Below are positions 6,436 to 21,787 of a stretch of DNA of 64,000 nt, piece after piece. The stretch is from Lachnospiraceae bacterium (GTDB taxonomy: Bacteria; Bacillota; Clostridia; Lachnospirales; Lachnospiraceae), in assembly GCA_024691425.1 (NCBI GenBank), contig JAILNQ010000125.1, positions 7,736-71,735 of the forward strand. The letters run 5' to 3'. The position numbers and the translations under genes were made by a program. How positions within the stretch are numbered: the stretch's first letter is position 1; each line of letters opens with the position of its first letter. Below the pieces are notes generated by a model that saw nothing but the letters and a program-made list of their open reading frames with translations, was not told the DNA's origin and ran no database searches.

Positions 6436-6450
6436 AATTTAGATAAATAT

Positions 6451-6523
6451 GGGGTATTAGCTCAGCTGGGAGAGCGCCAGGTTCGCAATCTGGAGGTCAC
6501 GGGTTCGATCCCCGTATGCTCCA
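6451..6523 (+). tRNA. tRNA-Ala (anticodon CGC)
   Basis: 73-nt cloverleaf folded by hand. Acceptor GGGGTAT/ATGCTCC has the G3:U70 Ala identity pair. Anticodon stem CCAGG/TCTGG, loop TTCGCAA. T-arm ACGGG-TTCGATC-CCCGT. CCA is not encoded. Confidence 0.92.
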
Positions 6524-6549
6524 TTTTCTACAAATTTCAAATAATTATC

Positions 6550-6607: not shown

Positions 6608-7183
6608 TCAATTCTTTTTCTTCTTTTTCTCTACCGAGTATCCGAATTTTCCGATCCTCTTTCCCAGACCGAAGTATACGCCGTGAGAGTAAGCTACGAG
6701 CTTCGAATCGTTGAGCTCGAACTTTCCGTTCTCGTCCATGTACTTCTCGTCAATAAGGATCCCGACGACTTCGGCGATGAACATATCATGACTTCCGAGC
6801 TCCTTGATCTCCTTGACTTTGCAGGCGAGGCTCAGGGGACTTTCTGCTATTGCCGGAGCTGACACGCCTTCGATATCGACGGGCGTAAGGTTCATCTTGG
6901 CAAATTTATCAATATCTCTTCCTGACCTGACTCCGCAGTAATCAGTTGCGAATGCAAGATCTTCAGTCACGAGATTGATAACGAATTCGCCTGTTGCGGC
7001 GATGATATCGTGAGAGTGGCGCTCCTTCCTGACGGATATCGATACCATGACAGGATCCGAACATATTGTTCCCGCCCAAGCAACGGTAATAATATTCGGC
7101 CTGCATCCGTTGCCGGCGCAGCTTACCATGACAACGGGCAGGGGATAGAGCATGTTTCCGGGTTTCCAGTTTGCTTTAGACAT
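6608..7183 (-). CDS. flavin reductase-like domain protein
   Basis: 191 aa. LYPLPVVMVSC...RPNIITVAWAGTICSDPVMVSISVRKERHSHDII matches the flavin reductase (FMN-binding split barrel) family pattern. Confidence 0.85.
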   Translation of the reverse strand: MSKANWKPGNMLYPLPVVMVSCAGNGCRPNIITVAWAGTICSDPVMVSISVRKERHSHDIIAATGEFVINLVTEDLAFATDYCGVRSGRDIDKFAKMNLTPVDIEGVSAPAIAESPLSLACKVKEIKELGSHDMFIAEVVGILIDEKYMDENGKFELNDSKLVAYSHGVYFGLGKRIGKFGYSVEKKKKKN

Positions 7184-7316
7184 ATTTTTTCCTTTCGATA
7201 GAAGATTCCGTGATGCTGATTTTCAATATACAGTATAACATAATCGATACTTGCTGCTCTTTTTGTGGTATAATGCCACATAGTTGTGTAAAAACATGGA
7301 ATGATATGAGGTGCTT

Positions 7317-8246
7317 ATGATTTACGATAATGTACTTGAGGCCGTTGGACATACACCGATGATAAGGCTCAACAGGCTTGTGAAACCGGGAAGCGCGGAG
7401 GTTCTCGTCAAGTTCGAGGGAACCAACATAGGCGGTTCCATAAAAACGAGGACCGCGCTGAACATGATAAAAGCGGCAGAGCGTGAAGGACTGATCAATA
7501 AGGATACCGTGATCGTCGAGCCGACGAGCGGCAACCAGGGCATCGGACTTGCACTCGTAGGTGCGGTAAGAGGCTACAGGACCATCATCATAATGCCGGA
7601 TTCCGTGAGCGAGGAGAGGACGAAGATCGTTAAGCATTACGGTGCGGAAGTAATACTGATCCATGATGACGGCGACATCGGCGAGTGCATGGACAAGTGT
7701 CTGAAGACTGCGCTTAAGATGCAGGAAGACGATCCGAACGTGTTCGTTCCGCAGCAGTTCGAAAATCCGAACAATACTATGGCACATAAAAATCATACCG
7801 CGCTCGAGATAATGGAACAGGTCGCAGGGCCTATTCATGGGTTCTGCTCGGGCATAGGAACCGGCGGTACGATAACAGGTATCGGAGAAGTGCTGAAAGC
7901 TCAGTACCCGTTCATAGAGATATGGGCAGTGGAGCCGGAGAATGCGGCCATTCTCGCGGGCGGAAACATAGGGACGCATCTTCAGATGGGAATCGGTGAC
8001 GGCATCATACCCGAGATACTCAATCTGTCCGTGTTCGACGACATATATGTCGTCTCCGACGAAGAGGCGATAGGAACTGCTCAGAGACTGGCAAGAGAAG
8101 AAGGGATACTGTGCGGCATTTCAAGCGGTACGAACGTTGCTGCGGCACTTCGTCTTGCCGACAAACTCGGAAGCGGTAAAACAGTTGTGACGGTGCTTCC
8201 GGATACGGCCGAAAGATATTTTTCTACGCCGCTTTTCGATGAGTGA
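7317..8246 (+). CDS. cysK: cysteine synthase A / O-acetylserine sulfhydrylase family (PLP-dependent)
   Basis: The track ORF begins at GTG 7311. ATG 7317 with GAGGTG RBS is preferred. MIYDNVLEAVGHTPMIRLNRL and the PLP-lysine motif GGSIKTR (canonical G-S-[VI]-K-D-R) are typical of CysK. Confidence 0.9.
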   Translation: MIYDNVLEAVGHTPMIRLNRLVKPGSAEVLVKFEGTNIGGSIKTRTALNMIKAAEREGLINKDTVIVEPTSGNQGIGLALVGAVRGYRTIIIMPDSVSEERTKIVKHYGAEVILIHDDGDIGECMDKCLKTALKMQEDDPNVFVPQQFENPNNTMAHKNHTALEIMEQVAGPIHGFCSGIGTGGTITGIGEVLKAQYPFIEIWAVEPENAAILAGGNIGTHLQMGIGDGIIPEILNLSVFDDIYVVSDEEAIGTAQRLAREEGILCGISSGTNVAAALRLADKLGSGKTVVTVLPDTAERYFSTPLFDE

Positions 8247-8262
8247 GAAACGCTGAACATTC

Positions 8263-8291
8263 TTGAATTTTTCATAAGATTACAGTATAAT
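8263..8291 (+). promoter_or_regulatory. sigma-A-type promoter for the STAS gene
   Basis: TTGAAT (8263-8268), 17-nt spacer, TATAAT (8286-8291). It lies 43 nt upstream of ATG 8334. Confidence 0.55.
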
Positions 8292-8333
8292 GCAGATGTT
8301 GGCAGTTTTATAATATATAAGGGAGAGAAGAAA

Positions 8334-8630
8334 ATGACGATCACCAAAGATAAGAATGCAGATGAGCTTACGATCTCACTTGAAGGAAGACTTGATACGA
8401 CTACGGCTCCGCAGCTCGAGGAAGAGCTTACGGCGTCGCTTGATGATGTCAAGAAGCTTGTGTTCGACTTCTCAAAGCTCGAATACATTTCTTCAGCAGG
8501 ACTCAGGGTTCTTCTTGCAGGCCAGAAGCGCATGAACAAACAGGGCAGCATGGTTGTCAAGAATGTAGCTGACGAGATCAAAGAGATATTTGAAGTCACC
8601 GGGTTCACGGAGATTCTCAACATTGAATGA
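8334..8630 (+). CDS. STAS-domain anti-sigma-factor antagonist (SpoIIAA/RsbV-like)
   Basis: 98 aa with GGGAGAG RBS. EYISSAGLRVL contains the conserved phosphorylatable Ser context of SpoIIAA/RsbV-type STAS proteins. Confidence 0.9.
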   Translation: MTITKDKNADELTISLEGRLDTTTAPQLEEELTASLDDVKKLVFDFSKLEYISSAGLRVLLAGQKRMNKQGSMVVKNVADEIKEIFEVTGFTEILNIE

Positions 8631-8663
8631 TAACGGACATTTGTGTTCCGGGATGAAAACACT

Positions 8664-8698
8664 GGGAGGTTAACCAAAAGGATGGCCTCCCGTTTTTT
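8664..8698 (+). terminator. intrinsic terminator/attenuator between the STAS and kinase genes
   Basis: GGGAGGTTAACC-AAAA-GGATGGCCTCCC forms an imperfect 12-bp stem (two G:U pairs, one mismatch). It is followed by TTTTTT at 8693-8698. Confidence 0.6.
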
Positions 8699-8727
8699 CT
8701 ATGATTGGATTTTTGAAAGGAAATGAT

Positions 8728-9141
8728 ATGAAACGGTTGGAGACGGATGCCGTCAGAGAAAATCTCAGCGAGATCCTCGCGTTCATTGACAGCGAGCTGG
8801 AGAATGCGGATTGCCCGCTAAAGGTGATGTACCTGATCGATATCGCAGCCGAAGAGATTTTCGTGAACATAGCCAGTTACGCATACGGACCTGAAGGAGG
8901 AAAGGCGGCGATCGAGATCGAGCTCGAGGATGAGCCGAAGACGGCAGTCATCACGTTCAGGGACAGCGGAATCCCATATAATCCCCTTGAAAAAGAGGAC
9001 CCTGACATCACGCTTTCGGCAGAGGAGAGGCAGATAGGCGGCCTCGGTATTTTCATGGTCAAAAAGAGCATGGATTCTGTCATCTACGATCACAGTGACG
9101 GCCAGAACGTTCTGACCATCCGCAAGGTGCTGGAAGGGTGA
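8728..9141 (+). CDS. anti-sigma regulatory factor-like Ser/Thr protein kinase (RsbW/SpoIIAB-type HATPase)
   Basis: ATG 8728 follows GAAAGGAAA. The track start 8701 would lie inside the terminator U-tract. Bergerat-fold boxes are present: AAEEIFVNIASYA (N box), RDSGIPYNP (G1), GGLGIFMVKK (G2). Confidence 0.85.
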   Translation: MKRLETDAVRENLSEILAFIDSELENADCPLKVMYLIDIAAEEIFVNIASYAYGPEGGKAAIEIELEDEPKTAVITFRDSGIPYNPLEKEDPDITLSAEERQIGGLGIFMVKKSMDSVIYDHSDGQNVLTIRKVLEG

Positions 9142-9146
9142 GCTGA

Positions 9147-10304
9147 ATGATTCTTTCGTCGAAAATGAACCGGTTCGGAGTGGAGGTATTCACCGGACTT
9201 GATATAAAAAGAAAAGAGCTCGAGGAGCGCGGAAGGCGCGTGTATAACTTAAGCATCGGGACGCCTGACATTGAGCCTCCGGAAGAGGTGAGGGCTGCTC
9301 TTAATGAAGCTTCGAAAGAACCCGGGGCATGGAAATACGCTCTTTATGACCTTCCTGAAATGACGGAAGCCGTGATTTCGCATTATAAGAAAAGGTTTTC
9401 AGTCAGCCTTACTCCGGAGCTTGTTACGAGCTGCAGCGGAACGCAGACGGCTCTTTTGCATGTTTTTCTCGCACTGTGCGATCCAGGGGATACCGTGCTT
9501 CTGCCGGATCCCGGCTATCCAGGCTTTCTTGCCGCGGCGTACATTGCGCAGGTTTGCATACAGTATTATCCCCTTGTAAAAGAAAACGGCTTCGTACCGG
9601 ATCTTTCATCGATTCCGGAGGATGTTGCAAAGGCCGCGAAGATGATCGTTGTCAATCTGCCGTCCAATCCGCTCGGAACGACAGCACCTTCCGGCTTTTA
9701 TGATGAGCTTGCCGAATGGGCAAGAAAATATGATGTTTTTGTTGTCTCCGACAACCCATACAGGGATATGGTATTTGACGGTGCAAAAGGAGAGAGTTTT
9801 CTTGAGGCCGAAGGCGCAACGGATGTCGGGATCGAACTGTTCTCACTGTCAAAGACATACTGCATAACCGGAGCCAGGATAGGATTTGTTGCCGGCAATC
9901 AGAAGGCAATAGATGCTGTCAGGACGATCCGCGAGCACATAGATTTCGGAATGTTCATACCGCTCCAGAGGGCTGCCGTTGCGGCGCTGTCGCTTCCGCT
10001 TTCGTATGCCGAGAATATCTGCTCCATCTATGAGGAACGAAGGGACGTGTTCTGCGGCGGACTTCGCAGCGCAGGATGGGATGTTGCCGATCCGAAGGGA
10101 GCGTTCTTCGTATGGTGCCCGATTCCGGAAGGATTTTCTAGCTCCATGGAATTTTGTGATGTTCTTCTTGAAAAGACGGGAATACTGTGCACGCCCGGTC
10201 CGGCATTCGGTTCGGGCGGTGAGGGCTATGTCAGATTCGCGCTCGTTGATGACAAGGAGATTCTTGCCGAGGCGGCATATGCGATAAAGGAAAGCGGGTT
10301 ATGA
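9147..10304 (+). CDS. class I/II pyridoxal-phosphate-dependent aminotransferase
   Basis: 385 aa. YNLSIGTPDIEPPEEV, NPLGT and the PLP-lysine context SLSKTYCITGARIGF. Confidence 0.85.
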   Translation: MILSSKMNRFGVEVFTGLDIKRKELEERGRRVYNLSIGTPDIEPPEEVRAALNEASKEPGAWKYALYDLPEMTEAVISHYKKRFSVSLTPELVTSCSGTQTALLHVFLALCDPGDTVLLPDPGYPGFLAAAYIAQVCIQYYPLVKENGFVPDLSSIPEDVAKAAKMIVVNLPSNPLGTTAPSGFYDELAEWARKYDVFVVSDNPYRDMVFDGAKGESFLEAEGATDVGIELFSLSKTYCITGARIGFVAGNQKAIDAVRTIREHIDFGMFIPLQRAAVAALSLPLSYAENICSIYEERRDVFCGGLRSAGWDVADPKGAFFVWCPIPEGFSSSMEFCDVLLEKTGILCTPGPAFGSGGEGYVRFALVDDKEILAEAAYAIKESGL

Positions 10305-10305
10305 T

Positions 10306-11271
10306 ATGAGGATCGTGCTTTTCGCATACCAAACAACACCGCACATAGATGAGTGGAAAAAGGCATTTTCTGCCAATGGCGTACCATTTGATATCGCCTA
10401 TGATGCTTCGGATGATAATGATATTGTAAATGCCTGCAAAGACGCGGATGTCGCGGTGACTCTCATAACACCCTTCCGGAGGGAAGTTCTTGGCCGGATT
10501 AAAAGCGTTAAGCGTATCGTGATCGCAGCGATGGGCTGTGACTGTGTTGATGTCAAAGCGGCGGAAAAGCTCGGCATAGAGGTATTGAACATACCTGATT
10601 ATGCCGTCGAGGAGGTCGCCGTTCATCAGATGGCGCTTATGCTCGCGAGCCTCCGCCATATAAACATATACTCTGATTACATAAAAGCCGGCAAGTGGAC
10701 GGATCCGGACTTCGCACTCGATTTTCCGGTCCACAGGCTTTCGGGTCTGACATACGGGCTCATAGGATTCGGACGCATAGCGAAAAAAGTCTGCACTTAT
10801 CTTCATGCGTTCGGAATGAAAGTCATTGCTTATGATCCTTATGTTCCGGCTGAGGAGATTACGATCAGCAAAGCGCAGCCGGCAACCCTCGATGAGGTTT
10901 TAAGCTCCAGCGACGTGATCTCGCCGAACCTTCCTCTGACCGCGGAGAGCAGGCATATGATCGGCCGCAGGCAGTTCGATGCAATGAAGCCCGGCGTTGT
11001 CATAGTGAACACCGGAAGAGGAGCGGTCATCGATCACGAGGCGCTCTGTGAAGCGATCGGTTCAGGAAAAGTTTCGGCTTTTGCCTGCGATGTTTTTGAG
11101 AATGAACCTTTCAATGACATGACTAGCCCGCTTATGAAGTCTGACAGATGCATCATGACGCCGCATATCGCTTACCTGTCGGAAGAATCAATGAGCGAGC
11201 TTATATCTAAAACCGTATCGGCGGCCCTTTACGGATCTGAAGATGCTGAAAACGCAAAGGAGAGACCATGA
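10306..11271 (+). CDS. D-isomer-specific 2-hydroxyacid dehydrogenase family, NAD-binding
   Basis: 321 aa. Rossmann motif GLIGFGRIAKKV, then NTGRGAVID and MTPHIAY typical of the family. The start is 1 nt after the upstream stop. Confidence 0.85.
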   Translation: MRIVLFAYQTTPHIDEWKKAFSANGVPFDIAYDASDDNDIVNACKDADVAVTLITPFRREVLGRIKSVKRIVIAAMGCDCVDVKAAEKLGIEVLNIPDYAVEEVAVHQMALMLASLRHINIYSDYIKAGKWTDPDFALDFPVHRLSGLTYGLIGFGRIAKKVCTYLHAFGMKVIAYDPYVPAEEITISKAQPATLDEVLSSSDVISPNLPLTAESRHMIGRRQFDAMKPGVVIVNTGRGAVIDHEALCEAIGSGKVSAFACDVFENEPFNDMTSPLMKSDRCIMTPHIAYLSEESMSELISKTVSAALYGSEDAENAKERP

Positions 11272-13052
11272 ACAAAAACAACAATTCACTGGCCACAAAA
11301 TTCATCAAGATATTCATTTTCTTCATCCTGGTCACGATAATCATAACCGCTGCCGCGACTTACATAACGCAGAACAGGATCTACTATAACCAGAACATGG
11401 AACTGCTCGCGAAAGTAAACACTTTCATAGGCGGAGAGATGAATGAGGACATTGATGAGTTTGCCGCTCTCCAGGAATATTTTGATGCTCATTCGTCGGA
11501 GATGCTGATACCGTATGAGTATTCGGAACTTCTGGATGATTACTTCCTTGAGTTCAGATCCGCGTTCAAGAAAAATTATCCGGACAGCGTTTTCGGAAAA
11601 GATGTCAGATATGATCAGCTCGATGATGAAACGGCCGCTCTTTACTTCAGGTATCTGTATCTTAAGTATCTGATACTTTTTGATGACATCAGGGATGAGT
11701 TCAAGCTTGATTATGCATATTACATTTATCCTACGGGTGACAAGTACACGATGTGCTTCATGTTCGACGGTCCCCGTGATGAGAAAGTCGTGGACGGCCA
11801 GTCATATCTCGATCTCGGCATCACGAGCTATCAGGAACCTTCCATACATGAGAACCTCTGGGCAGCTTACAATTCAGGCATGCCGGCGGAGAGAATGGAT
11901 GCATACGACAATGAATACGGCCACGTCTACAGCTATCCGACTCCGGTAAAATACGGTGATAAAGTTCTCGGCGTGATACTGACTGACATCAATTACAGCT
12001 ACGTCAACGGATCGATAAGAAACACGGCGATCGCGCTCGTCGGACTGTACGTTGTAGTTCTCGGCATATGTTCCGCGGCCATCATCGTTTATGTGAGGAA
12101 GACGATGCTGAAGCGCATAACCGTGCTCGAGGGGCATGTTCAGCAGTACGCAAGGGAAAAGGATCCTGCGATCGCCGACAGGATAAAGACGGATGATAAA
12201 GATGAGGATGAGATAACGTCCCTGTCGATGGAATTCTCGAAAATGATCACCCGCCTTCACGAATATATGGATAACCTGACTGCAGTCACTGCAGAGAAGG
12301 AAAGGATAGGAGCGGAGCTCAGCATCGCCACGGAGATCCAGGCATCGATGCTTCCGAGGATCTTCCCGCCGTTCCCTGAAAGAAAGGATTTCACTCTGTT
12401 TGCGTCAATGGATCCCGCTAAAGAGGTAGGCGGAGATTTCTATGATTTCTTCATGCTCGATGATGACCATTTAGCTCTTGTCATGGCGGATGTTTCCGGA
12501 AAAGGTGTTCCTGCGTCGCTCTTCATGGCGATATCGAAAGTCATGATAAAGGATAATTCATACTCCTGCAGCTCACCGGCTGAAACGCTGTACCACGTCA
12601 ATAATCAGCTCTGCGGCGAAAATGATGCGGCGCTTTTCGTGACCGTATGGCTCGGAATTGTTGAGCTTTCAACCGGAATTGTTACATATTCGGACGCAGG
12701 CCATGAGTATCCTGTGATCCTGAAAAAATCAGGCGAAACCGAGATCATAAAGCCGGAAAAGAAGAAACCTCCCGTTGCGACTATGGAGGATATCACATAC
12801 ATCGACTGTACCCTCAAGCTCGAAAAGGGAGATACGCTATTCCTTTACACGGACGGCGTCCCCGAAGCCACCAACTCAGACAACGAGCTTTACGATATGT
12901 CAAGGCTTGTCGCAGTACTTGCAAAAAGCGCGGGGGCATCGCCTACGGAGCTTCTTCCTAAGGTCAGGGCGGACGTGGATGCGTTCGTCGGAGACGCGGT
13001 TCAGTTCGATGATCTTACGATGCTCGCCTTCAGACTGGAAGAGCAGTCATGA
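11268..13052 (+). CDS. membrane-bound HAMP-domain PP2C phosphatase (SpoIIE/RsbU family)
   Basis: 594 aa with ATGA overlap on the upstream gene. TM, ~220-aa extracytoplasmic region, TM, HAMP-like linker, then PPM motifs GGDFYDF, MADVSGKGVPASLFMA, LYTDGVPEA and FDDLTMLAF. Confidence 0.9.
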   Translation: MNKNNNSLATKFIKIFIFFILVTIIITAAATYITQNRIYYNQNMELLAKVNTFIGGEMNEDIDEFAALQEYFDAHSSEMLIPYEYSELLDDYFLEFRSAFKKNYPDSVFGKDVRYDQLDDETAALYFRYLYLKYLILFDDIRDEFKLDYAYYIYPTGDKYTMCFMFDGPRDEKVVDGQSYLDLGITSYQEPSIHENLWAAYNSGMPAERMDAYDNEYGHVYSYPTPVKYGDKVLGVILTDINYSYVNGSIRNTAIALVGLYVVVLGICSAAIIVYVRKTMLKRITVLEGHVQQYAREKDPAIADRIKTDDKDEDEITSLSMEFSKMITRLHEYMDNLTAVTAEKERIGAELSIATEIQASMLPRIFPPFPERKDFTLFASMDPAKEVGGDFYDFFMLDDDHLALVMADVSGKGVPASLFMAISKVMIKDNSYSCSSPAETLYHVNNQLCGENDAALFVTVWLGIVELSTGIVTYSDAGHEYPVILKKSGETEIIKPEKKKPPVATMEDITYIDCTLKLEKGDTLFLYTDGVPEATNSDNELYDMSRLVAVLAKSAGASPTELLPKVRADVDAFVGDAVQFDDLTMLAFRLEEQS

Positions 13053-14494
13053 AAGACATCATAAAAACATGCAGAAGCTGCAATACGACAGTCGACAGGA
13101 TGATGTCATCCGATATGACATTGGACGGATGGCTTGAACATGAGATCGGGAAACTGAAAGGGAACTGCAGGATCGCGCATGTCCTGAAAAAAGATGATCT
13201 CATAGATGAATGCTGCAGCTATATAGGTGCGCGTCTGTCTGATGAGGCGGCGCATATGGTCGGCTCTGTCATGGAAAGCGGGATTTTCTATACGGCCGAT
13301 CATCTCGGCGGGCTGTATTCGGCGCAGTCGTTCCAGGGAGACCTGCTCTACGCGAGGCTTCTTAAGAAACTGCATGGCGACCTGCCGTGTGTTCCCATGG
13401 TTTCGTTCGGTCTTGTTCCGATAAACAGCTCTACATATGCAAGAGGCCTGATCGCGTATTCGAGAACTGATGAGGCGGAGCATATCCCGCTTCTTCCGAA
13501 GATGCCGACGAATGCGGCGGCTTCGCTCTCGGACGCGTTCACATCTCTGATGGCAAGGAGCACGAAAGATAAAGCGCTTGCAAGGGTAAAAAGCTATCTC
13601 GTAAAAAAGAAGATCCGTGAGGTCATGGAAAACCTCTATCAGAGCGACGGGGTGCTGTCGCAGAAAAGATTCGCCGATCAGGTGCTCTTCCTCGGAGAAG
13701 GATTATATGAAAGGCTTTGCCCAACGATATGCCAGGGGAATTTCTGGCATATGGAAGCGGAAAGTATTTTCGCTTCGCTGTTCATGAAGGATTATTCCGA
13801 ACGCGGAGGTTTCATCCGGGACTTTCTGCTCGATCCGAAGACGGTCAGAGCGCTCAATGAAATTGCAGATGATGAGGGAAGAAAACTATCCGGACTGATC
13901 TTCAGGGGATGCAGCGACAGAAGGTGTTTTGCTCTGAATCTTGATGAGGACGGGAAACTGCGGGGCACGGATGTTAACGCTAAAAGCTACGAGTTCAGCA
14001 TGTCGGAAGATGAGCTGGGTGATGCGATAAAGTCGAGGCAGGTACTGCCGCACGTTTATCTGTCGTGGCTCCTTTCTAGTTATCTGCGAGGGTTCACATG
14101 GTTCGGCGGGATACTCCAGTCCGTCTATCTTCAGGACTGGAACAAAAGAACATGTGAAATGATGGAATCGCTCGGGTATGAGGACATAGCGAACCCCCGG
14201 AGGGACTTTGATGATTCGGGGTACTTGAGCGGACCGATATACATGCTTTTTGATACAGGGGATGGAGCAGTAAATGCAGGGCCTTTTGAGCTCATGGCTA
14301 AACCGATCACGCCCGAAAGATACAACGCACTGTTTGAAACCGACATGAAGTCTGCCCATGAAATGGGCTGCTTTGAATTCTACAACGACATCGCTGCGGC
14401 AGCTGAGAAAGGAGATAACTGGTATGAAAGGATCGCGGCATACGCAAAGGAACACTATAGCGCATACACGCTTCAGAACCTTCAGGACGCTTAG
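13049..14494 (+). CDS. hypothetical cytoplasmic protein (481 aa), no family recognised
   Basis: Long ORF with ATGA overlap on the PP2C gene and protein-like composition. No TM segment or signal peptide. I recognise no motif. Confidence 0.75.
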   Translation: MKDIIKTCRSCNTTVDRMMSSDMTLDGWLEHEIGKLKGNCRIAHVLKKDDLIDECCSYIGARLSDEAAHMVGSVMESGIFYTADHLGGLYSAQSFQGDLLYARLLKKLHGDLPCVPMVSFGLVPINSSTYARGLIAYSRTDEAEHIPLLPKMPTNAAASLSDAFTSLMARSTKDKALARVKSYLVKKKIREVMENLYQSDGVLSQKRFADQVLFLGEGLYERLCPTICQGNFWHMEAESIFASLFMKDYSERGGFIRDFLLDPKTVRALNEIADDEGRKLSGLIFRGCSDRRCFALNLDEDGKLRGTDVNAKSYEFSMSEDELGDAIKSRQVLPHVYLSWLLSSYLRGFTWFGGILQSVYLQDWNKRTCEMMESLGYEDIANPRRDFDDSGYLSGPIYMLFDTGDGAVNAGPFELMAKPITPERYNALFETDMKSAHEMGCFEFYNDIAAAAEKGDNWYERIAAYAKEHYSAYTLQNLQDA

Positions 14495-15626
14495 CGCAGC
14501 AATGATCGTTCTCGCCATGTTCCTTTCAGGATGCTCGGGAAGGAACGAGGTCGTCATAGACGTCGCAGGTCAGGATTATGAGTTTGAAACCGAACCTGTT
14601 GCACGTCCTGACGGTGAGCCGTTCAGGATCGCGTTCATGGATCTCGGGCCGCCGATCGAAAGCTCATATCTGTGCCTGAAAGGATTCGTTGAAGGCCTCC
14701 AGACGCTCGGATACATAAACGAAAGTATTGATTTTTCCGAAGCTCCGGCGGAATTCTTCGCATACTATGATTTTGTTCTGTCACATGATCTCGGAAAGTA
14801 TGTTTCATTTGATGATGAACCGTACATGATAGGAGTAGGTGATGATGAACGGATAAAAGAGACGCTTGTTTCTGAAAGTGAGTCTGGAGCTCTCGACATA
14901 GTCGTTGGTACGGGAACCGATCCGGGAATTTTCCTGAAGGAACTTGATCTTGAGATTCCTTTTCTCATATGTCTTGCGACCGATCCGGTTGCCTCAGGGA
15001 TAATAGATTCGGCGGAGGATACGGGCGATGACGATATATGGGCACTTGTCGAGCCGAATCCTTACAAGAGGCAGTTCGAGGGTTATCAGAAGATGCTCGG
15101 TTTCGACCGCATCGCTATGATGACCGTGAACGGAATGGATACGATTACCGGCAACCCTCTTTACCGTGAAAAGGCCGGAGAGCTCGGAGTTAAGATCGAT
15201 GAGATCAACTTCTCCGAGGAGGAATCACTTGAAGAAGACTATTACGATCAGATGTATGAAAGTTTAAAAAATGCTGATCTTTCAGAAGATGATGCGATTC
15301 TTTTCGCGTACGGGACGATGGATGACGCAAGCGCTCCTGAGCTTTCCGGATATGCGGCCGAAAAGGGCATTCCGTCCCTTATCGGTGATGGTGATTCGAT
15401 AAGTGAAATGGGCGGCATGATGTGCCTTTCATGTTTCGACTACGAGGGGTACGGCAATTATGCCTCGATGGTTGCGAGCAATGTCTTCCATGGACAGAAG
15501 GCCGGGAAGCAGCCGTGCATCTACACTAGCTCGCCGCATGTTGTTCTTAACATGACGACGGCGAAAAACACAGGATTCGTAACAGGATTCGATCTGTTGA
15601 GAGGCGTTGACAGGATATACAGATAG
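14424..15626 (+). CDS. lipoprotein, ABC-type substrate-binding-protein-like (PF04392-like fold family)
   Basis: ATG 14424 has AAGGAG 8 nt upstream. Lipobox AMFLSGC follows a basic N-region. ATDPVASGII resembles the [AV]TDPV motif of the ABC_sub_bind family. ATG 14502 is an alternative start. Confidence 0.75.
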   Translation: MKGSRHTQRNTIAHTRFRTFRTLSAAMIVLAMFLSGCSGRNEVVIDVAGQDYEFETEPVARPDGEPFRIAFMDLGPPIESSYLCLKGFVEGLQTLGYINESIDFSEAPAEFFAYYDFVLSHDLGKYVSFDDEPYMIGVGDDERIKETLVSESESGALDIVVGTGTDPGIFLKELDLEIPFLICLATDPVASGIIDSAEDTGDDDIWALVEPNPYKRQFEGYQKMLGFDRIAMMTVNGMDTITGNPLYREKAGELGVKIDEINFSEEESLEEDYYDQMYESLKNADLSEDDAILFAYGTMDDASAPELSGYAAEKGIPSLIGDGDSISEMGGMMCLSCFDYEGYGNYASMVASNVFHGQKAGKQPCIYTSSPHVVLNMTTAKNTGFVTGFDLLRGVDRIYR

Positions 15627-15635
15627 GGACAGAAA

Positions 15636-17861
15636 ATGAAAGCATTTTTCCGTGAATACTACATCATACTCATAATCACCGCATTGTCTGCCGTGGCGCT
15701 GTGTGCGCTGAGCTACCTTACGGTTCTCGATTATTCCTATTCCAATGAGGAGCAGTATATAATAACGTGCAACGAAACTGCGGTGGAGGAAATCGAAACG
15801 TCGCTCCAGTACGGCAAAAGACTGTCGAATTATTACGGAATCGGCCAGGTTCTGCAAAGAAGCCGGGAGCTTATTAGCGACGGCGGAATGGATTCCATCG
15901 TTGTCGTAGAGGATGCGGACGGCAATGTCATTGCTACCACGAAGGATGAGGACCATTTCGTCATACCGCTTTCCGAATACGGAACAGTCCGGCAGGATAT
16001 CCTTGACGGCGATAAGACAGCAGGAGTCCTGACTACTTATTATTCCAAGAAGAACGTTGTTTCTTCGCTTGCTCCCTCGGCAAGGCGCTCGACGTTCGGG
16101 AGCATAGGAATACTCGCACTTCTTATCATCGTTCTGGTTACCGTTGGCGTTAAGAAAAACTGGCAGGCGAACAGGATAGTTTTCGCCGCAGTTGCTGCCA
16201 TAGTACTCCAGGGTATATTCCTTACTGCCGTTTACGAGCAGGAGTTCGTAAGAGCATCCGAGAAGAGCATTAAAGGTGTTGCTTCGTATATCGGTGCATC
16301 AATAGACGGCGTGCTCGAAAAGGGCGTTGAGATGGATGAGATAGCGGATCTCGGAGACTATCTCGAGAAGAAGAAGCAGGAAAATGATTTCATAAAAGAC
16401 ATTTACATTGAGCGTACCGAAAAGGTTGTTGATGATGACGACCTGTTCGTTGCCGAGATAGAAAACACGGATTCAAGCCTTGTACTGTCATGCCGGATAG
16501 CTGACGGCTATATAAGGAAGAACGTCATCAACATGGTGCTGATGTTCGTTGCGACGATAATACTTGCGGTCATCGTGCTCAAAGAATCGCTTCCCCTTTC
16601 AGATATGATCGCGTTCAGGAAGAGCGGCGAGTTCGAAAAGCCTGTAAAGGATCAGTACGATAACGTAGCAAGAGCAATACGGTACGGAAATTTCCTGTCG
16701 CTGACTTTTGAATATATGTGTCTTTCGTTCTCGGCTCTGCAGATAAAGGAATGGAACCAGGGGGCATGGGGACTTTCACCTGTCATGGCGGCGGCCCTTT
16801 CGATATCGATATGCTCCATAGCGGATATCGCGGGAATGATCGCTATGCCTGCCGTCAGCAAGAAGATGAACACGCGACTTCTCATGATAGTATCAGCGGT
16901 TGTGATCGCTGTATCGAATCTGTCATGCTTCTTTACAGGCTCGACAGTGGTCATTATCGTGATGAGATTCTTTGCGGGTGCGGGTGCAGCAGGCACTAAG
17001 CAGGTAAGAAATGAGGTCATAACAAAAGGCTGCGGCAATGAGGAGCAGCGCAACAGCAATCTCACTGCAAGCAATATGGGAGTCATAGGAGGACTGCTGT
17101 GCGGCCTCGGCCTCGGGGGCGTCGTGGCCGGAGTTTTCGGATATCAGGCTACGTTCCTTGTGGCAGGAGTCGGACATCTTCTCTACCTCCTTTTCGAATA
17201 TGCATGCATCCCTTGGAAACTCATAGCAGAGCATGCTTCGGTAACTTCTTCGGAAGGTCCGGGAAGGCATCCTCTGAAAAGGATCGGCGCTGTCATTTCA
17301 TCTTTCTCGGTATGGCGCACTCTGATAACTATAGTAGTACCGCAGTATTTTCTCATAATGATAATCGTATGCCTGATTCCCGGACGTATACAGTCGCTCG
17401 AACTTCCCGGCGTAGTTCTGACGTATGCGAACCTTCTTAACGGAATCATAGGGCTTTATGTCGGAGAGATCGTTTACAGCAAGCTCCGTGGCAGAATAAA
17501 GAATGATCTGAAGATACAGGCCATCGTTCTGGCGGCGGGTGCCGTTTCGCTCATGATGCTCGACATACCGTTTGCTTTTTCGCTGCTCATCCTTATTTCG
17601 GCGAGCATAGCAGGCCTTCTCGACGGAGTAGGCACTCCGGTATCAACCGATCTGTTCATGAAGATTCCGGCTATAAATGAACACTTGAACGGCACCGAAA
17701 GCCTCATGGTCTATTCGGTCATTGGAAGCGCAGTCATGGCCATTGCTCCTTTTATCCTCGAACTGTGCGAGAAGAGCATGATCTGGATGTTTTCCGTCGG
17801 AGGCGTGTTCCTTCTGCTGTCAGCCGTGCTTTTTGCTGAGAAGGGAAGTGCGGAGTCTTGA
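15636..17861 (+). CDS. polytopic membrane protein: N-terminal sensor-like module fused to a 12-TM MFS-like domain
   Basis: 741 aa. TM1, ~125-aa extracytoplasmic segment, two TMs, ~100-aa acidic soluble segment, one TM, then 6+6 TM helices with a central loop and the MFS-like motif MRFFAGAGAAG. Confidence 0.8.
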   Translation: MKAFFREYYIILIITALSAVALCALSYLTVLDYSYSNEEQYIITCNETAVEEIETSLQYGKRLSNYYGIGQVLQRSRELISDGGMDSIVVVEDADGNVIATTKDEDHFVIPLSEYGTVRQDILDGDKTAGVLTTYYSKKNVVSSLAPSARRSTFGSIGILALLIIVLVTVGVKKNWQANRIVFAAVAAIVLQGIFLTAVYEQEFVRASEKSIKGVASYIGASIDGVLEKGVEMDEIADLGDYLEKKKQENDFIKDIYIERTEKVVDDDDLFVAEIENTDSSLVLSCRIADGYIRKNVINMVLMFVATIILAVIVLKESLPLSDMIAFRKSGEFEKPVKDQYDNVARAIRYGNFLSLTFEYMCLSFSALQIKEWNQGAWGLSPVMAAALSISICSIADIAGMIAMPAVSKKMNTRLLMIVSAVVIAVSNLSCFFTGSTVVIIVMRFFAGAGAAGTKQVRNEVITKGCGNEEQRNSNLTASNMGVIGGLLCGLGLGGVVAGVFGYQATFLVAGVGHLLYLLFEYACIPWKLIAEHASVTSSEGPGRHPLKRIGAVISSFSVWRTLITIVVPQYFLIMIIVCLIPGRIQSLELPGVVLTYANLLNGIIGLYVGEIVYSKLRGRIKNDLKIQAIVLAAGAVSLMMLDIPFAFSLLILISASIAGLLDGVGTPVSTDLFMKIPAINEHLNGTESLMVYSVIGSAVMAIAPFILELCEKSMIWMFSVGGVFLLLSAVLFAEKGSAES

Positions 17862-20203
17862 CTCTAAAAGATCTTTCCATAGAAAAATATGCTGTTATAG
17901 AAAGCGTCGGAGGAGACGGGCCCCTTCGGCAGCACCTTCTTGATATGGGAGTCCTTCCCGGCGCGTATTTAAAGATCATGAAATACGCTCCGATGGGCGA
18001 CCCGATGGAGATAGAGATACACGGATATGAACTCACGCTCCGGCTTTCAGAGGCAGAACATATAATTGTCCGAGAAGTTCCGGAAGGTTTTTCGCCGTCT
18101 GATGACTTTTCTCCGCAACGAACGTCATCTTCTGATCATCCGGGCCTTGGAGAGAGCGGAAAATTCCATCCTAAAGGAACCGGAAATCCGCTGCCGGACG
18201 GCGAGCTTCTGACTTTTGCCCTCGTAGGGAATCAGAACAGCGGAAAGACAACGCTTTTTAACGCACTTACCGGAGCCAACCAGCATGTCGGCAATTTCCC
18301 GGGTGTCACAGTTGACAGGAAGGACGGTCAGATAAAGGGGCATCCTGATACGCTCATCACCGATCTTCCCGGCATCTACTCAATGTCCCCGTATTCCAGT
18401 GAAGAGATAGTCTCGCGTCATTTCGTCCTGGATGAAAAACCGAAAGCGATCATCAACATAGTCGACGTAACGAACATAGAACGCAACCTCTATCTTACGC
18501 TGCAGCTGCTTGAGATGGATACTCCGGTCGTGGTGGCGCTCAACATGATGGATGAGCTCACGTCGAACGGCGGTATGGTCGATGTCAACAGAATGGAGGA
18601 TATGCTGGGCGCCCCTGTGGTACCGATTTCGGCGTCAAAGCATGAAGGAATAGAAGAGCTCGTAAGCCATGCCCTTCATATCGCTAAATACCAGGAAAAA
18701 CCGCTTCTGCGCGATTTCTGTGACGACAGCGAGGGAGGAGGCGCGGTCCACAGGAGCATTCACGCCGTAAGGCATCTGATCGATGACCATGCCGCAGAGA
18801 AGAAAATCCCTGCGAAATTCGCAGCATCCAAGGTCATCGAAGGCGACAAGGGGATCATTTCCCGCCTTGAGCTGGATCAGAATGAGATAGAGACGATGGA
18901 GCATATAGTGCTCCAGATGGAGAAGGAACGCGGACTCGACCGCAGCGCGGCCATTGCTGACATGAGGTTTTCATATATCGCAAAGGTATGTGCCGCTGCT
19001 ATAAAGAAACCGCGTGAGAGCAAGGAGAGGATACGGAGCGAGAAAGTCGACCGGATCCTTACGGGAAAGTACACTGCGATCCCGGTATTCATAGTGATAA
19101 TGGGACTTGTGTTCATTCTGACGTTCAATGTCATAGGCGCTTTTCTGCAGGAACTTCTCGCCGCAGGTATCAAGGCGCTCTCTGACATAGTCATGCATTT
19201 TATGACGGCAGCAGGCGTGAACCCCACATTGCAGAGCCTTGTTATAGACGGGACTTTCACGGGCGTCGGGAGCGTGCTGAGCTTCCTGCCGATAATAGTT
19301 ACGATGTTCTTCTTCCTCTCGCTTCTTGAGGACAGCGGATACATTGCAAGAGTCGCGTTCGTGATGGACAAGCTTTTAAGGAAGATCGGGCTTTCCGGAC
19401 GTAGCATAGTTCCGATGCTGATCGGATTCGGCTGTACTGTTCCGGCCGTAATGGCTACGAGAACTCTTCCTAGTGAGCGCGACAGAAGAATGACGATATT
19501 GCTCACCCCGTTCATGAGCTGTTCGGCAAAACTTCCTATATACGCGTTCTTCGTGAGCGCTTTCTTCCCGGGTAAAGGCGGACTTATCATTACCGCGATC
19601 TACGTCATCGGCATAGCGATCGGAATAATAATAGCGAAAATCTACCGCGGCACGATGTTCCGTGGAGATGCGGTTCCTTTCATCATGGAACTTCCGAACT
19701 ACAGGATGCCTCGCGCCATAAACGTAGCAAGGCTCCTTTGGGAGAAGGCGAAGGATTTTCTGCAGAGGGCTTTCTCGGTCATACTCATAGCCACGATCGT
19801 TGTATGGCTTTTAAAGAGCTTCGATCTTCACCTGAATCTCGTAGCTGATTCAAAGGACAGCATTCTTGCGGCGGTTGCCGGATTCATAGCGCCCCTTATG
19901 AGGCCTCTCGGGCTAGGCGACTGGAGGATATGCATATCGTTGATCACAGGGATACTGGCGAAAGAGAGCGTTGTATCTTCGATGGGGATACTTTTCGGTG
20001 ACAGTGTTTCGTCATTCCTGACGCCTGTATCAGCGGCATCCCTTCTCGTGTTCTCGCTGCTTTATACGCCATGCATTGCTGCCATTGCTTCGGTAAGACG
20101 CGAAATGGGAAAAAGATGGGCAGTTACCGTTGCGTTATGGCAGTGCATGGTTGCCTGGATCGCCGCATTCCTTGTCCGCCTTCTCGGATCGCTGTTCTTA
20201 TAA
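17858..20203 (+). CDS. feoB: ferrous iron transporter, FeoA-FeoB fusion
   Basis: 781 aa with TTG start overlapping the upstream stop (TTGA). N-terminal FeoA SH3-like domain (GAYLKIMKYAPMGDPMEIEIHGYELTLR). FeoB G-domain (FALVGNQNSGKTTLFNALTG, DLPGIYS) and polytopic permease. Confidence 0.9.
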   Translation: MTLKDLSIEKYAVIESVGGDGPLRQHLLDMGVLPGAYLKIMKYAPMGDPMEIEIHGYELTLRLSEAEHIIVREVPEGFSPSDDFSPQRTSSSDHPGLGESGKFHPKGTGNPLPDGELLTFALVGNQNSGKTTLFNALTGANQHVGNFPGVTVDRKDGQIKGHPDTLITDLPGIYSMSPYSSEEIVSRHFVLDEKPKAIINIVDVTNIERNLYLTLQLLEMDTPVVVALNMMDELTSNGGMVDVNRMEDMLGAPVVPISASKHEGIEELVSHALHIAKYQEKPLLRDFCDDSEGGGAVHRSIHAVRHLIDDHAAEKKIPAKFAASKVIEGDKGIISRLELDQNEIETMEHIVLQMEKERGLDRSAAIADMRFSYIAKVCAAAIKKPRESKERIRSEKVDRILTGKYTAIPVFIVIMGLVFILTFNVIGAFLQELLAAGIKALSDIVMHFMTAAGVNPTLQSLVIDGTFTGVGSVLSFLPIIVTMFFFLSLLEDSGYIARVAFVMDKLLRKIGLSGRSIVPMLIGFGCTVPAVMATRTLPSERDRRMTILLTPFMSCSAKLPIYAFFVSAFFPGKGGLIITAIYVIGIAIGIIIAKIYRGTMFRGDAVPFIMELPNYRMPRAINVARLLWEKAKDFLQRAFSVILIATIVVWLLKSFDLHLNLVADSKDSILAAVAGFIAPLMRPLGLGDWRICISLITGILAKESVVSSMGILFGDSVSSFLTPVSAASLLVFSLLYTPCIAAIASVRREMGKRWAVTVALWQCMVAWIAAFLVRLLGSLFL

Positions 20204-20266
20204 AAAGCATGCGGAATATCCGGTAAATATCATAACCCTTGAATGCATCTGAAAGAGACTTGATAA

Positions 20267-20872
20267 ATGGAAGATAAAGGAACAGAATATAATAAAAAGG
20301 ATCCGCTCGAGTGGGAAGAAGTTTCAACGGAGCATATCGTAAGCGATGAATGGATCGATATAAGAAGGTCGTCATACCGTTTTCCCGACGGAAATGTTTT
20401 TGAACCTTTCTACACATACAGCCGCAAGGATTTTTCTGTCGTAGCGGCCACCGATGAGAACGGCGATTACATATGCGTCAGACAGTACCGCCAGGGTGTA
20501 AGGAAAGTAACGACCGAATTCCCTGCGGGCGGCATTGAACGTAATGACGGCAAGCAGTACGGAGCAGGATATGCATCGAGAGAAGATGCGCTTCTTGCGG
20601 CAAAGCGCGAGCTTGCAGAGGAAACCGGGTACGAATCGGATGACTGGTCGTACATGCTTACCATTCCTGAAAACGCGACGATAGCCGACAATTATGCATA
20701 CATATTCCGTGCAAGGAACTGCCGCAGGGTTTCGGGGCAGAAGCTTGATGATACGGAATTCTTAAACGTTACGAAGCACTCGGCAGCCGAGCTCGAAAAG
20801 CTGATCGCGGACGGTGACTTCCCGCAGGCCATACACATCATGGCTCTGCTCATGTCGCAAAGAGAACAGTGA
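20267..20872 (+). CDS. NUDIX hydrolase (ADP-ribose pyrophosphatase-like)
   Basis: 201 aa. Nudix box core REDALLAAKRELAEETGY. Confidence 0.85.
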   Translation: MEDKGTEYNKKDPLEWEEVSTEHIVSDEWIDIRRSSYRFPDGNVFEPFYTYSRKDFSVVAATDENGDYICVRQYRQGVRKVTTEFPAGGIERNDGKQYGAGYASREDALLAAKRELAEETGYESDDWSYMLTIPENATIADNYAYIFRARNCRRVSGQKLDDTEFLNVTKHSAAELEKLIADGDFPQAIHIMALLMSQREQ

Positions 20873-20937
20873 ATGTCAATAATTCATGACCGGTGCCGAT
20901 ATAATATAGGACAGAAATATTCTGTATACGAAAAGAG

Positions 20938-21525
20938 ATGGAAATCAGAATGAACAGAACAGAAACGGCTGAAAAGAATAACAGAGGTCTTTCGCTTATC
21001 GAGCTGATCATCGTGATCGCTATCATGGCGGTACTTGTCGGAGTACTCTCGCCGATGTTCGTGAAATACGTTGACAGTTCCAGAAAGGCCAAGGACGTAT
21101 ATACGGCCGATCAGATAGCGAAGGCGGTAAATGTTGCTTTTATTGAGCATCCCGAGGCATATGATGCTTTCAAGGACTGGAAGTCTAACAGTTCAAATAT
21201 AAAAAGATCGGTTTCGGTAATGGAAGGCGGCGTTCAGAATACTTATAACGTATATCTGGTCGCTTCTAGCGGAACTCAGGGTACAAACGGTGTTTCAAAC
21301 TGCTTTAATGGGAGCACAAATGAGTTCAGGACAGAAGGAGGCCGTGTGCTTGAAGGTAACGGGAAATACGGATTTTATGGAGTGATAAACAGGCAGCTGG
21401 GGCTCAGCACTACAGAAATGAACAGTGAGATCATTCCCAAATTCAATCAAAGGAGAGAGGGAGCCGGCATTGATAAGAATGGAACCATGGTCGCTTTGCC
21501 GAGGTTGACCGTTGGAGAATCGTAA
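20938..21525 (+). CDS. prepilin-type N-terminal cleavage/methylation domain protein (type IV pilin/pseudopilin-like), possibly frameshifted
   Basis: Class III signal ...NNRG/LSLIELIIVIAIMAVLVG with Glu at +5. An adjacent frame stays open to 21635 (see findings). Confidence 0.75.
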   Translation: MEIRMNRTETAEKNNRGLSLIELIIVIAIMAVLVGVLSPMFVKYVDSSRKAKDVYTADQIAKAVNVAFIEHPEAYDAFKDWKSNSSNIKRSVSVMEGGVQNTYNVYLVASSGTQGTNGVSNCFNGSTNEFRTEGGRVLEGNGKYGFYGVINRQLGLSTTEMNSEIIPKFNQRREGAGIDKNGTMVALPRLTVGES

Positions 21526-21669
21526 AACGTGTTGATAACGGCATGATGGAAATATGGGCTGCACAGCCGAATCCATGGGGCGGATACCCGATCTACCGCG
21601 TCTGGCCCGAGCCCGACGACATATACAAGAATTAGCAGATAATGACATATTGACACATAAATGACAGCT

Positions 21670-21705
21670 AACGCTCCGGGAATTCCCGGAGCGTTGTTTG
21701 ATTTG
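21670..21705 (+). terminator. intrinsic terminator after the pilin locus
   Basis: Perfect palindrome AACGCTCCGGG-AATT-CCCGGAGCGTT (21670-21695) followed by a T-rich GTTTGATTTG. Confidence 0.7.
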
Positions 21706-21787
21706 AAAATAAGACAGTTATATAGTAAAATATAAACTCGATTTATTATGCGCATTACGCGGGAACATTACACGGAGGTACGCATAT

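Follow-up and report, generated by a model that had tools for sequence, protein, structure and literature searches.

The RsbU/RsbV/RsbW–SigB and SpoIIE/SpoIIAA/SpoIIAB–SigF partner switches of Bacillus are built from a STAS protein with a serine, a small HATPase_c_2 kinase, and a PP2C phosphatase of the SpoIIE/RsbU family, and the sigma-factor gene follows the kinase gene. Partner switches with outputs other than a neighbouring sigma factor have also been described, among them those of SypA, BtrV, RbaV, SiaABC, and HsbA (PMC8256260, PMC7647112, PMC6482189, PMC3999984). In the RsbU–RsbV1/V2–RsbW switch of Chlamydia trachomatis, a transmembrane PP2C phosphatase with a periplasmic ligand-binding domain and a HAMP-like linker is encoded with no adjacent alternative sigma factor; its reported target is the housekeeping sigma factor, and tricarboxylic acid-cycle intermediates are the reported ligands of the sensor (PMC8256260). 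Here, we analyze a 64-kb stretch of DNA from a Lachnospiraceae bacterium (contig JAILNQ010000125.1; hereafter, the window) in which nine open reading frames (ORFs), all on the + strand and head to tail at 8263–20203, encode the three components of such a switch together with metabolic enzymes, transporters, and a protein without a family. A preliminary description of this DNA had read these genes as a candidate non-sigma partner switch whose output could be metabolism, transport, or both.

With a probability of roughly 0.55, we read the region as a composite of a common partner-switch pair, a ligase/transporter/sensor module, and an unrelated iron transporter. The pair, of a generic clostridial kind, would comprise an RsbW-like serine kinase and a STAS protein whose gene has a promoter of its own and is followed by a leaky terminator. 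The module would combine five functions: a stereo-inverting step, the 481-residue protein without a family (U481; 13049–14494, + strand), a chimeric transporter of the major facilitator superfamily (MFS), one or two solute-binding proteins (SBPs) of family PF04392, and a membrane sensor. The observations made in the preliminary description were confirmed, and its interpretation was supported in part.

The composite reading is carried by a comparison of loci anchored on U481. A profile search over 1.84 billion representative proteins gave 878 clusters of the U481 family at 50% identity; the rumen family comprised 13 distinct loci (25–77% identity), and a metagenome scan contributed 80 further loci from marine, sediment, and human-gut samples. 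Among the 29 complete loci, defined by at least 5 kb on each side and including rumen loci, the MFS chimera was present in 28, the SBP in 27, a membrane sensor in 26, and all three in 25, and at least 19 had a stereo-inverting enzyme. The window has all five members. By the same count, a kinase gene was adjacent in 3 of the 29 loci and a STAS gene in 1. Over the whole module family, a kinase gene was adjacent in the window and in loci L006, L014, and L015 only, and a STAS gene in the window and L006 only; a relaxed jackhmmer search for either gene in 98 loci likewise matched only L006, L014, and L015. The test of neighbourhood conservation that had been proposed earlier therefore divides the cluster: U481, the MFS chimera, the SBP, and the sensor stay together, whereas the kinase, the STAS protein, and FeoAB accompany them rarely or never.

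The rumen loci show this division at close range. A Lachnospiraceae metagenome-assembled genome (MAG) encodes a hypothetical protein with 100% identity to U481, and further relatives are encoded in MAGs of rumen and gut origin and in two cultivated strains, Oribacterium sp. WCC10 (GCA_900113415.1) and Lachnospiraceae bacterium KH1P17 (GCA_900168235.1). The genes for the PP2C sensor, U481, the SBP, and the MFS chimera are co-linear in all rumen Lachnospiraceae loci long enough to tell, with some orders rearranged (alanine racemase (Alr)–U481–SBP–MFS–PP2C in L010 and PP2C–Alr–MFS–kinase–U481–SBP in L015), and the PP2C gene adjoins U481 wherever that flank is present, except in L011. The closest relative, L006, is a Lachnospiraceae MAG with a 67% identical U481 and is syntenic with the window on both sides, from MatE genes and cysK through to a NUDIX gene, a pilin-like gene, citrate synthase, and GTP cyclohydrolase. 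FeoAB, the last ORF of the cluster (17858–20203, + strand; 781 residues), overlaps the MFS gene by TTGA and is a ferrous iron transporter by profile (TIGR00437, E 3.4e-178, 594 bits for a cut-off of 316; PF04023, PF02421, PF07670, and PF07664 all match). It is absent between the MFS gene and the NUDIX gene of L006 and from all other related loci; on this distribution, FeoAB is a lineage-specific insertion or deletion difference and not a module member. Profiles from Pfam and NCBIfam confirmed every assignment in the cluster, so the gene identities given previously stand; the count of ten does not, as FeoA and FeoB are fused in one ORF. Links of the module to metals via FeoAB and to cysteine via cysK were considered and set aside, each of these neighbours being kept at most in the closest relative.

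The fifth function is filled by different enzymes in different loci. In the window, the two genes between kinase and phosphatase encode a class I/II pyridoxal phosphate-dependent aminotransferase (9147–10304, + strand; PF00155, E 2e-58), which resembles LL-diaminopimelate (DAP), aspartate, or alanine aminotransferases, and a D-isomer-specific 2-hydroxyacid dehydrogenase (10306–11271, + strand; PF02826, E 2.1e-56; PF00389). All equivalog scores for the two enzymes fell below cut-off and their nearest PDB relatives are generic, so no substrate was assigned. This pair is kept with the module only in L006 and in Oribacterium (L005), and the latter retains aminotransferase–dehydrogenase–PP2C–U481–SBP–MFS with no kinase or STAS gene. 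An alanine racemase is the fifth member in KH1P17, L008, L010, L014, L015, and L017; in the wider family, gut loci have a divergent alanine-racemase-fold protein, and marine and sediment loci have a 399-residue DAP-epimerase-fold protein. Because the aminotransferase and dehydrogenase fill the slot that these racemases or epimerase-fold enzymes occupy elsewhere, we assign them to the U481 module; the earlier proposal that their reactions could be an output of the switch is not supported by these comparisons.

Outside the rumen, the sensor varies as well. Environmental loci carry a dCache_2-HAMP histidine kinase, often a hybrid with Hpt, and human-gut loci a dCache-HAMP-PP2C protein; sensors from Firmicutes thus end in PP2C as their output domain, those from other phyla in a histidine kinase. 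One gut PP2C, in L080, joins the two types, its dCache-HAMP half matching histidine kinases (blastp E 4e-30) and its catalytic half matching the window PP2C (E 2e-54). Loci of the histidine-kinase type carry genes for response regulator-GGDEF-EAL, EAL, or single-domain receiver proteins, and GGDEF/EAL genes recur near PP2C-type modules and generic triads. Many loci have two SBP paralogues. A permease of the aspartate:alanine-exchanger family adjoins the module in L016. A second homologue search, with the wide alignment, gave almost nothing beyond the narrow family on account of its word index; its one new locus, L018, has aminoacyl-tRNA synthetase neighbours only, on its single visible side. 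Two annotated records extend the family to plasmids. On pDV of D. vulgaris Hildenborough (L108; record positions 192334–198416), an SBP, a 1012-residue MFS protein, and a 594-residue U481 homologue are encoded by DVU_RS16635–16645. On a plasmid of Streptomyces sp. NBC_01420 (L109; 191398–203097), the U481 gene overlaps an MFS gene in a biosynthetic-looking cluster with cupin, methyltransferase, short-chain dehydrogenase/reductase, amidinotransferase, Zn-dehydrogenase, ATP-grasp, and FemAB-like genes. The U481 homologues in both records are labelled hypothetical. The pDV trio adjoins a gene for a CesT-type type III secretion chaperone, in an organism that is genetically tractable.

U481 itself has no sequence relatives of recognized family. 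Searches with U481 and two family profiles against Pfam, NCBIfam, and PDB sequences returned nothing consistent, 38 family members had no Pfam match at E values up to 10 (PF10079 included), and sampled members had no Pfam domain apart from fused N-terminal domains. An AlphaFold2 model built from a 22-sequence alignment reached a pLDDT of 93 and a pTM of 0.92. When this model was compared to the PDB with Foldseek, the single significant match was B. subtilis BshC, the cysteine-adding enzyme of bacillithiol biosynthesis (4wbd; E 8.6e-7, probability 1.0), aligned over 420 columns with a TM score of 0.44–0.48 and 11% identity; class I aminoacyl-tRNA synthetases appeared only in the non-significant tail. 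U481 thus has the class I synthetase-like, Rossmann-like core of the BshC family in its predicted structure and no match to that family in sequence. A TADHLGG motif, of general form T-A-(D/N)-H-(L/H)-G, lies after strand 79–83 and before a helix; in the narrow family its T, A, H, and first G never vary, and in the wide family H85 is still without exception. This position would be that of the HIGH motif in class I synthetase-like nucleotide-binding folds. No bshA- or bshB-type glycosyltransferase or deacetylase occurred among the Pfam-annotated neighbours of U481 loci. The model suggests that U481 is BshC-like in fold and belongs to an undescribed enzyme family distinct from BshC.

Protein fusions bear on its substrate. 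Several family members of 838–898 residues consist of an N-terminal alanine racemase and a C-terminal U481 domain, and a second type of fusion, the 731-residue metagenome protein P0136 from ENA, has an N-terminal S-adenosylmethionine-dependent methyltransferase and a C-terminal U481 domain. Because one slot of the module is taken by any of three non-homologous enzymes, each of which makes or interconverts a D-configured alpha-substituted acid, and because racemases are fused to U481, we infer that U481 acts on an acid of this kind; it is probably an ATP-dependent ligase for a D-configured amino or hydroxy acid.

The transport components lie immediately downstream. The SBP is a lipoprotein with the lipobox LSGC (PF04392, ABC_sub_bind, E 1.8e-7; 14424–15626, + strand, with the start ambiguous between 14358, 14424, and 14502). 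As previously described, it is an orphan: no ABC permease or ATPase gene was present in 8263–20203 or among annotated neighbours in related loci, so that of the three genes of an SBP-dependent ABC importer (SBP, permease, and ATPase) only the first is found. At 35035 lies the nearest ABC ATPase gene of the window, with a SufBD gene after it. L-Trp, L-Tyr, and L-Phe are ligands of structurally characterized PF04392 proteins (PMC10443332). The 741-residue MFS chimera (15636–17861, + strand; PF07690, E 1.5e-17) has its MFS_1 domain at residues 355–704, preceded by four extra transmembrane helices around two predicted extracytoplasmic stretches (29–153 and 200–296), an architecture that agrees with its earlier description as an MFS chimera. 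This N-terminal region is homologous between the rumen and environmental families (hhalign probability 99.7%, E 8e-26), whereas neither blastp nor hhalign related it to the sensor domains. The Streptomyces context and the tight coupling of MFS and U481 genes favour biosynthesis and export, while SBPs and reversible enzymes allow uptake.

The partner-switch triad of STAS protein, RsbW-like kinase, and membrane PP2C is complete in the window, as the preliminary description had stated. The single-domain, 98-residue STAS protein of the anti-sigma-antagonist type (8334–8630, + strand) matches PF01740 (E 1.5e-16) and TIGR00377 (E 5.9e-20; 71 bits, above the cut-off of 53), and has a phosphorylatable serine within YISSAGL; the motif DFSKLEYISSAGLRVLL can be read in the translation. 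The RsbW/SpoIIAB-like serine kinase (8728–9141, + strand; PF13581, HATPase_c_2, E 1.4e-21), a member of the GHKL class, shows the N, G1, and G2 boxes as EEIFVNIASY, DSGIPYN, and GGLGIF, with the second Gly of G1 replaced by Pro, and scores far below the cut-off of the RsbW/SpoIIAB equivalog models (26 bits compared to 145). Its ORF also opens at 8701; we chose the ATG at 8728, giving 137 residues and preceded by the ribosome-binding site AAAGGAAA, because homologues are 135–138 residues long and because of the alignment to L006. The phosphatase (11268–13052, + strand; PF07228, E 2e-45) has a transmembrane helix at residues 12–30, an extracytoplasmic domain at 31–254, a second transmembrane helix at 255–273, a HAMP-like linker, and a SpoIIE-type domain at 398–590 with all PPM motifs (GGDFYD, DVSGKG, AGH, TDG, and FDDLT). 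Of the earlier label HAMP-PP2C, the membrane PP2C part holds; the HAMP domain has no Pfam match, and an hhalign alignment of the second transmembrane helix and HAMP region at 61% probability gives weak profile evidence for a HAMP-like linker only. The catalytic domain is 55–58% identical to those of generic dCache_1-HAMP-SpoIIE proteins, and the NCBIfam SiaA model gave it 66 bits, where 700 is the cut-off.

No sigma-70-family domain was found in the approximately 48 real-looking ORFs of the window, and a six-frame regular-expression search for region 2 was also empty, in agreement with the preliminary description; the adjacent cognate sigma gene of an RsbV/RsbW/RsbU-type module is thus the one component that this locus lacks. 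A search with the kinase gave more than 7,900 homologues at E <1e-10, those at 62–67% identity coming from Lachnospiraceae and Ruminococcus, and the STAS protein is 60–66% identical to STAS proteins beside related kinases. In five independent contexts of the closest kinases, the gene orders were kinase–dCache_1-HAMP-SpoIIE, STAS–kinase–dCache_1-HAMP-SpoIIE, kinase–STAS, kinase–SpoIIE, and SpoIIE–kinase–X–STAS, with no sigma gene within 6–8 kb in any of them. The absence of an adjacent sigma gene, taken earlier as a peculiarity, is therefore the norm for this kinase clade, and outputs other than sigma factors were already on record. Nor does the aminotransferase gene in the 'sigma position' carry special meaning, as the closest kinases adjoin PP2C or STAS genes elsewhere. 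By these comparisons, nothing marks the window triad out from a large family of clostridial partner switches in which the kinase genes lack a nearby sigma gene. One context, L106 (1–9450), has a large non-ribosomal peptide synthetase gene followed by genes for SpoIIE (597 residues), the kinase, a 209-residue protein of no assigned function, and STAS, with no sigma gene nearby. A gene for a PALP-fold enzyme stands directly upstream of the STAS/kinase pair in two otherwise differing contexts, cysK (7311–8246) in the window and threonine synthase in L103 (4526–6411 of that locus), the latter with a 4-nt overlap with the kinase start.

A sigma-70-type promoter-like site, TTGAAT-17-TATAAT (8263–8291, + strand), precedes the STAS gene and was top-scoring in a scan of 15 kb (7000–22000). 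Because the total number of consensus matches over this region equals the chance expectation from shuffled sequence, support for the site comes not from the scan but from conservation: its −10 element and flanks are invariant between the window and L006. The 70–97-nt gap between the STAS and kinase genes, which the preliminary description had not listed, contains an intrinsic-terminator-like hairpin, GGGAGG...CCTCCC followed by T6 (8664–8698, + strand; −28 kcal/mol, z −2.15). At the same site, L006 keeps the stem and the T-run, and a scan there gives a canonical terminator of 8 pairs, 6 of them GC. The hairpin is probably an attenuator or leaky terminator. Between the T-run and the kinase ribosome-binding site there is too little space for a promoter, so the downstream genes are most simply transcribed by read-through, which would leave STAS more abundant than the kinase. 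From the kinase onward, the junctions of +5, +1, −4, −4, −71 or +7, +9, and −4 nt given previously were reproduced from the ORF coordinates. Rfam detected no riboswitch or other RNA within the cluster. The claim that ten genes form one conserved unit, with STAS as a member, is not supported by these data: STAS adjoins the module only in the window and L006 and is followed in both by a conserved terminator, FeoAB is missing even from syntenic L006, and a kinase is rarely adjacent.

A second, distant clade places the kinase differently. In L014 and L015, RsbW-like kinase genes (14087–14509 and 9534–9956, respectively) lie inside the module and overlap the end of the MFS-chimera gene, with no STAS gene within 8–10 kb. 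The window kinase is 42–45% identical to these module kinases and 62–64% identical to generic kinases. In this clade, a protein of the module may be the direct target of kinase and PP2C. As a separate observation, genes for an approximately 585-residue protein with C-terminal Ntox11 ('novel toxin 11') and an approximately 280-residue GNAT acetyltransferase stand directly upstream of the module PP2C in both loci (L014 3074–5760; L015 1409–4017).

Starting from what was established directly, namely gene content, conservation, domain identities, fusions, the predicted fold of U481, and the terminator kept in L006, we infer how the composite might work. The lipoprotein SBP would bind an extracellular ligand of amino-acid type, perhaps the module's own exported product, and the PP2C, the MFS chimera, or both would receive the signal through their extracytoplasmic domains. 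The PP2C would then dephosphorylate STAS-P, and unphosphorylated STAS would capture the kinase, so that either the kinase partner is set free or STAS itself acts on a target encoded outside the cluster. In the simplest model, module PP2Cs usually feed a STAS–kinase pair encoded elsewhere, and the window lineage has such a pair directly upstream.

Several points weigh against this composite mechanism. Most PP2C-type modules have neither STAS nor kinase within 8–10 kb, which weakens the assumed action of the window PP2C on STAS-P, and the kinases of L014 and L015 are embedded in modules without STAS. The terminator after STAS could mean that this gene is transcribed independently. An hhalign comparison to sensor domains detected no dCache_2 or other Cache identity in the extracytoplasmic part of the window PP2C. 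A single-sequence AlphaFold2 model of the MFS chimera had a pLDDT of 39.6, too low to give the fold of its N-terminal region. The likeness of U481 to BshC is purely structural at the TM scores and identity given above, and to our knowledge the ligase chemistry of BshC itself has not been reconstituted in vitro. All component functions, finally, are predictions from sequence or models.

Among the alternatives, the one that survives best, and that we consider possible, is a canonical switch with a remote sigma factor, for which the module would be one of several sensory inputs. The kinase does match the RsbW and SpoIIAB models, though below their cut-offs, and several differing sensor PP2Cs accompany near-identical kinase types, much as RsbU and RsbP converge on RsbV in B. 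subtilis. However, no sigma gene follows the kinase within 6–8 kb in six contexts, the window included, as it does in RsbW–SigB and SpoIIAB–SigF, and the present kinase is shorter (135–138 residues) and scores 26 bits where the equivalog cut-off is 145. The target of the switch appears to be encoded outside the cluster, and by analogy we give a non-sigma target a slight preference over a remote sigma factor, because histidine-kinase-type modules carry cyclic di-GMP (c-di-GMP) enzymes, because GGDEF/EAL genes recur near PP2C-type modules and generic triads, and because SiaABC and HsbA control biofilm formation without a neighbouring sigma output (PMC7647112, PMC6482189). A c-di-GMP enzyme is one candidate target on these analogies.

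A more specific version of the composite reading, which we put forward tentatively, is a self-signalling or metallophore-like circuit. In it, the racemase of the module, or its aminotransferase and dehydrogenase, would supply a D-amino or D-2-hydroxy acid, which U481 would ligate to an acceptor and the MFS protein would export; the orphan PF04392 SBPs, together with Cache-type histidine-kinase or PP2C sensors, would read the product back from outside, and the circuit would switch c-di-GMP signalling or, in Firmicutes, a partner switch that has no sigma gene beside it.

Transport may instead run inward, a reading that we regard as doubtful. Here, the SBP would pass a D-amino-acid-type nutrient or peptidoglycan-derived compound to the chimeric MFS protein as importer, the racemase or the dehydrogenase and aminotransferase would convert it to an L-amino acid, U481 would process or conjugate it, and the sensor would tune behaviour to its availability. 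PF04392 SBPs with solved structures have amino acids as ligands (PMC10443332), an SBP could dock on the additional extracytoplasmic stretches of the MFS protein, many loci have two SBP paralogues, the module enzymes are reversible, and L016 has its exchanger-family permease next door. Against uptake, a ligase-like enzyme has no obvious catabolic role, and in Streptomyces the gene for the U481 homologue overlaps a plain MFS gene within a biosynthetic-looking cluster that lacks an SBP. We also know of no described MFS transporter that depends on an SBP.

It is unlikely that the STAS–kinase pair and the module are chance neighbours, with the PP2C acting on some other substrate. The conserved terminator after STAS, the lack of STAS and kinase in most module loci, and the closer relation of the window kinase to generic kinases than to module kinases would all fit such a juxtaposition, but the 5-nt kinase–aminotransferase junction and the lack of promoter space upstream of the kinase do not, nor do the kinases embedded in the module of the distant clade or the membership of the module PP2C in the same catalytic family as the phosphatases that pair with these kinases.

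That all ten genes form an integrated non-sigma switch, with a cluster protein as kinase partner and metabolism and MFS/Fe2+ transport as output, is very unlikely: the tight junctions from the kinase through FeoAB, the lack of a sigma gene in the window, and the 5-nt kinase–aminotransferase arrangement kept in L006 speak for it, but every related locus lacks FeoAB, Oribacterium has the enzymes and module without kinase or STAS, the closest kinases elsewhere never adjoin an aminotransferase, and the aminotransferase–dehydrogenase pair is interchangeable with racemases.

In the composite reading, the new part is the module rather than the switch, which is a further case of an already known kind. 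The U481 family has about 880 clusters with no Pfam, NCBIfam, or PDB sequence entry, and the module occurs in Lachnospiraceae, Peptococcaceae, Nitratidesulfovibrio, Streptomyces, and marine or sediment bacteria, including the cultured strains Oribacterium sp. WCC10, Lachnospiraceae bacterium KH1P17, and D. vulgaris Hildenborough. If the module does make or sense a compound derived from a D-amino acid, it would represent a new branch of D-amino-acid biology and of SBP-dependent signalling. The kinase clade is common in gut and rumen Clostridia, with thousands of members, and the question of its output is therefore worth asking.

Other features of the window were recorded in passing. A 195-residue protein with a type IV pilin N-methylation motif is encoded downstream of the cluster and is followed by a terminator at 21669–21696 (12 pairs, 8 GC; gene and terminator together 20938–21696), the only strong canonical one near the cluster. 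Tandem gene pairs encode MatE efflux proteins (2996–5801) and CNNM/CBS/CorC proteins (52560–55141). Two ORFs, of 523 residues (42318–43889) and 184 residues (5814–6368), have no Pfam match, and the smaller is kept in L006 at 61% identity. In a 402-residue protein (57241–58449), the 218-position model of F420-0:gamma-glutamyl ligase (PF01996) is spread over residues 17–395, which implies a large insertion. tRNA-Ala(CGC) at 6450–6524 and tRNA-Glu(CUC) at 34888–34960 are the sole Rfam/ARAGORN matches in the window.

Set beside the Bacillus switches, the window shares the STAS protein with its serine, the small HATPase_c_2 kinase, and the SpoIIE/RsbU-family phosphatase. It differs in that the kinase gene is not followed by a sigma gene, which holds for five related contexts as well; in that kinase and STAS score far below the equivalog cut-offs; in that the phosphatase is a membrane sensor with a 224-residue extracytoplasmic domain; and in that two metabolic genes sit between kinase and phosphatase. 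The Chlamydia trachomatis RsbU–RsbV1/V2–RsbW switch is closest in architecture but has no ligase, MFS, or SBP module. Like the switch proposed here, SiaABCD and HsbR/HsbA/HsbD of Pseudomonas, SypE/SypA of Vibrio fischeri, BtrU/V/W of Bordetella, and RbaV/W/Y of Rhodobacter set a kinase and a phosphatase to work on a STAS or STAS-like protein. The output of the two Pseudomonas systems is a diguanylate cyclase, which the c-di-GMP enzymes of the histidine-kinase-type modules recall. BshC-fold enzymes, racemases, chimeric MFS proteins, and PF04392 SBPs accompany none of these non-sigma switches.

The module has partial counterparts only. BshC, the sole significant structural neighbour of the U481 model, is proposed to join an amino acid to an acceptor, but U481 is partnered with racemases and not with cysteine metabolism, apart from the cysK neighbour in the window and L006. 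SBPs act with sensors in LuxP–LuxQ and TorT–TorS and with secondary transporters in the TRAP and TTT families. With these, the module shares an orphan SBP gene beside a membrane sensor and a secondary transporter and no ABC parts; its PF04392 SBP, MFS protein with extra stretches, and PP2C output are unlike those of any described example. SBPs are known to stimulate signal-transduction receptors (PMC10443332). By analogy, the module also resembles a metallophore locus. The staphylopine (Cnt) locus combines a DAP-epimerase-fold racemase, biosynthetic enzymes, an MFS exporter, and a recapture SBP. Unlike that locus, the module has no nicotianamine-synthase-like, opine-dehydrogenase, or ABC importer gene among its annotated neighbours, and the FeoAB gene next door in the window is not a conserved neighbour. 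Nothing relevant came out of the literature when it was searched for this combination of genes, BshC-like proteins, or the accession numbers from D. vulgaris, in keeping with the earlier remark that no described system with this gene set was known. The partner-switch part of the locus would work like RsbU/V/W, and the module matches no described system in the literature searched; the U481 module is a strong lead and may prove to be more than a variant of known systems.

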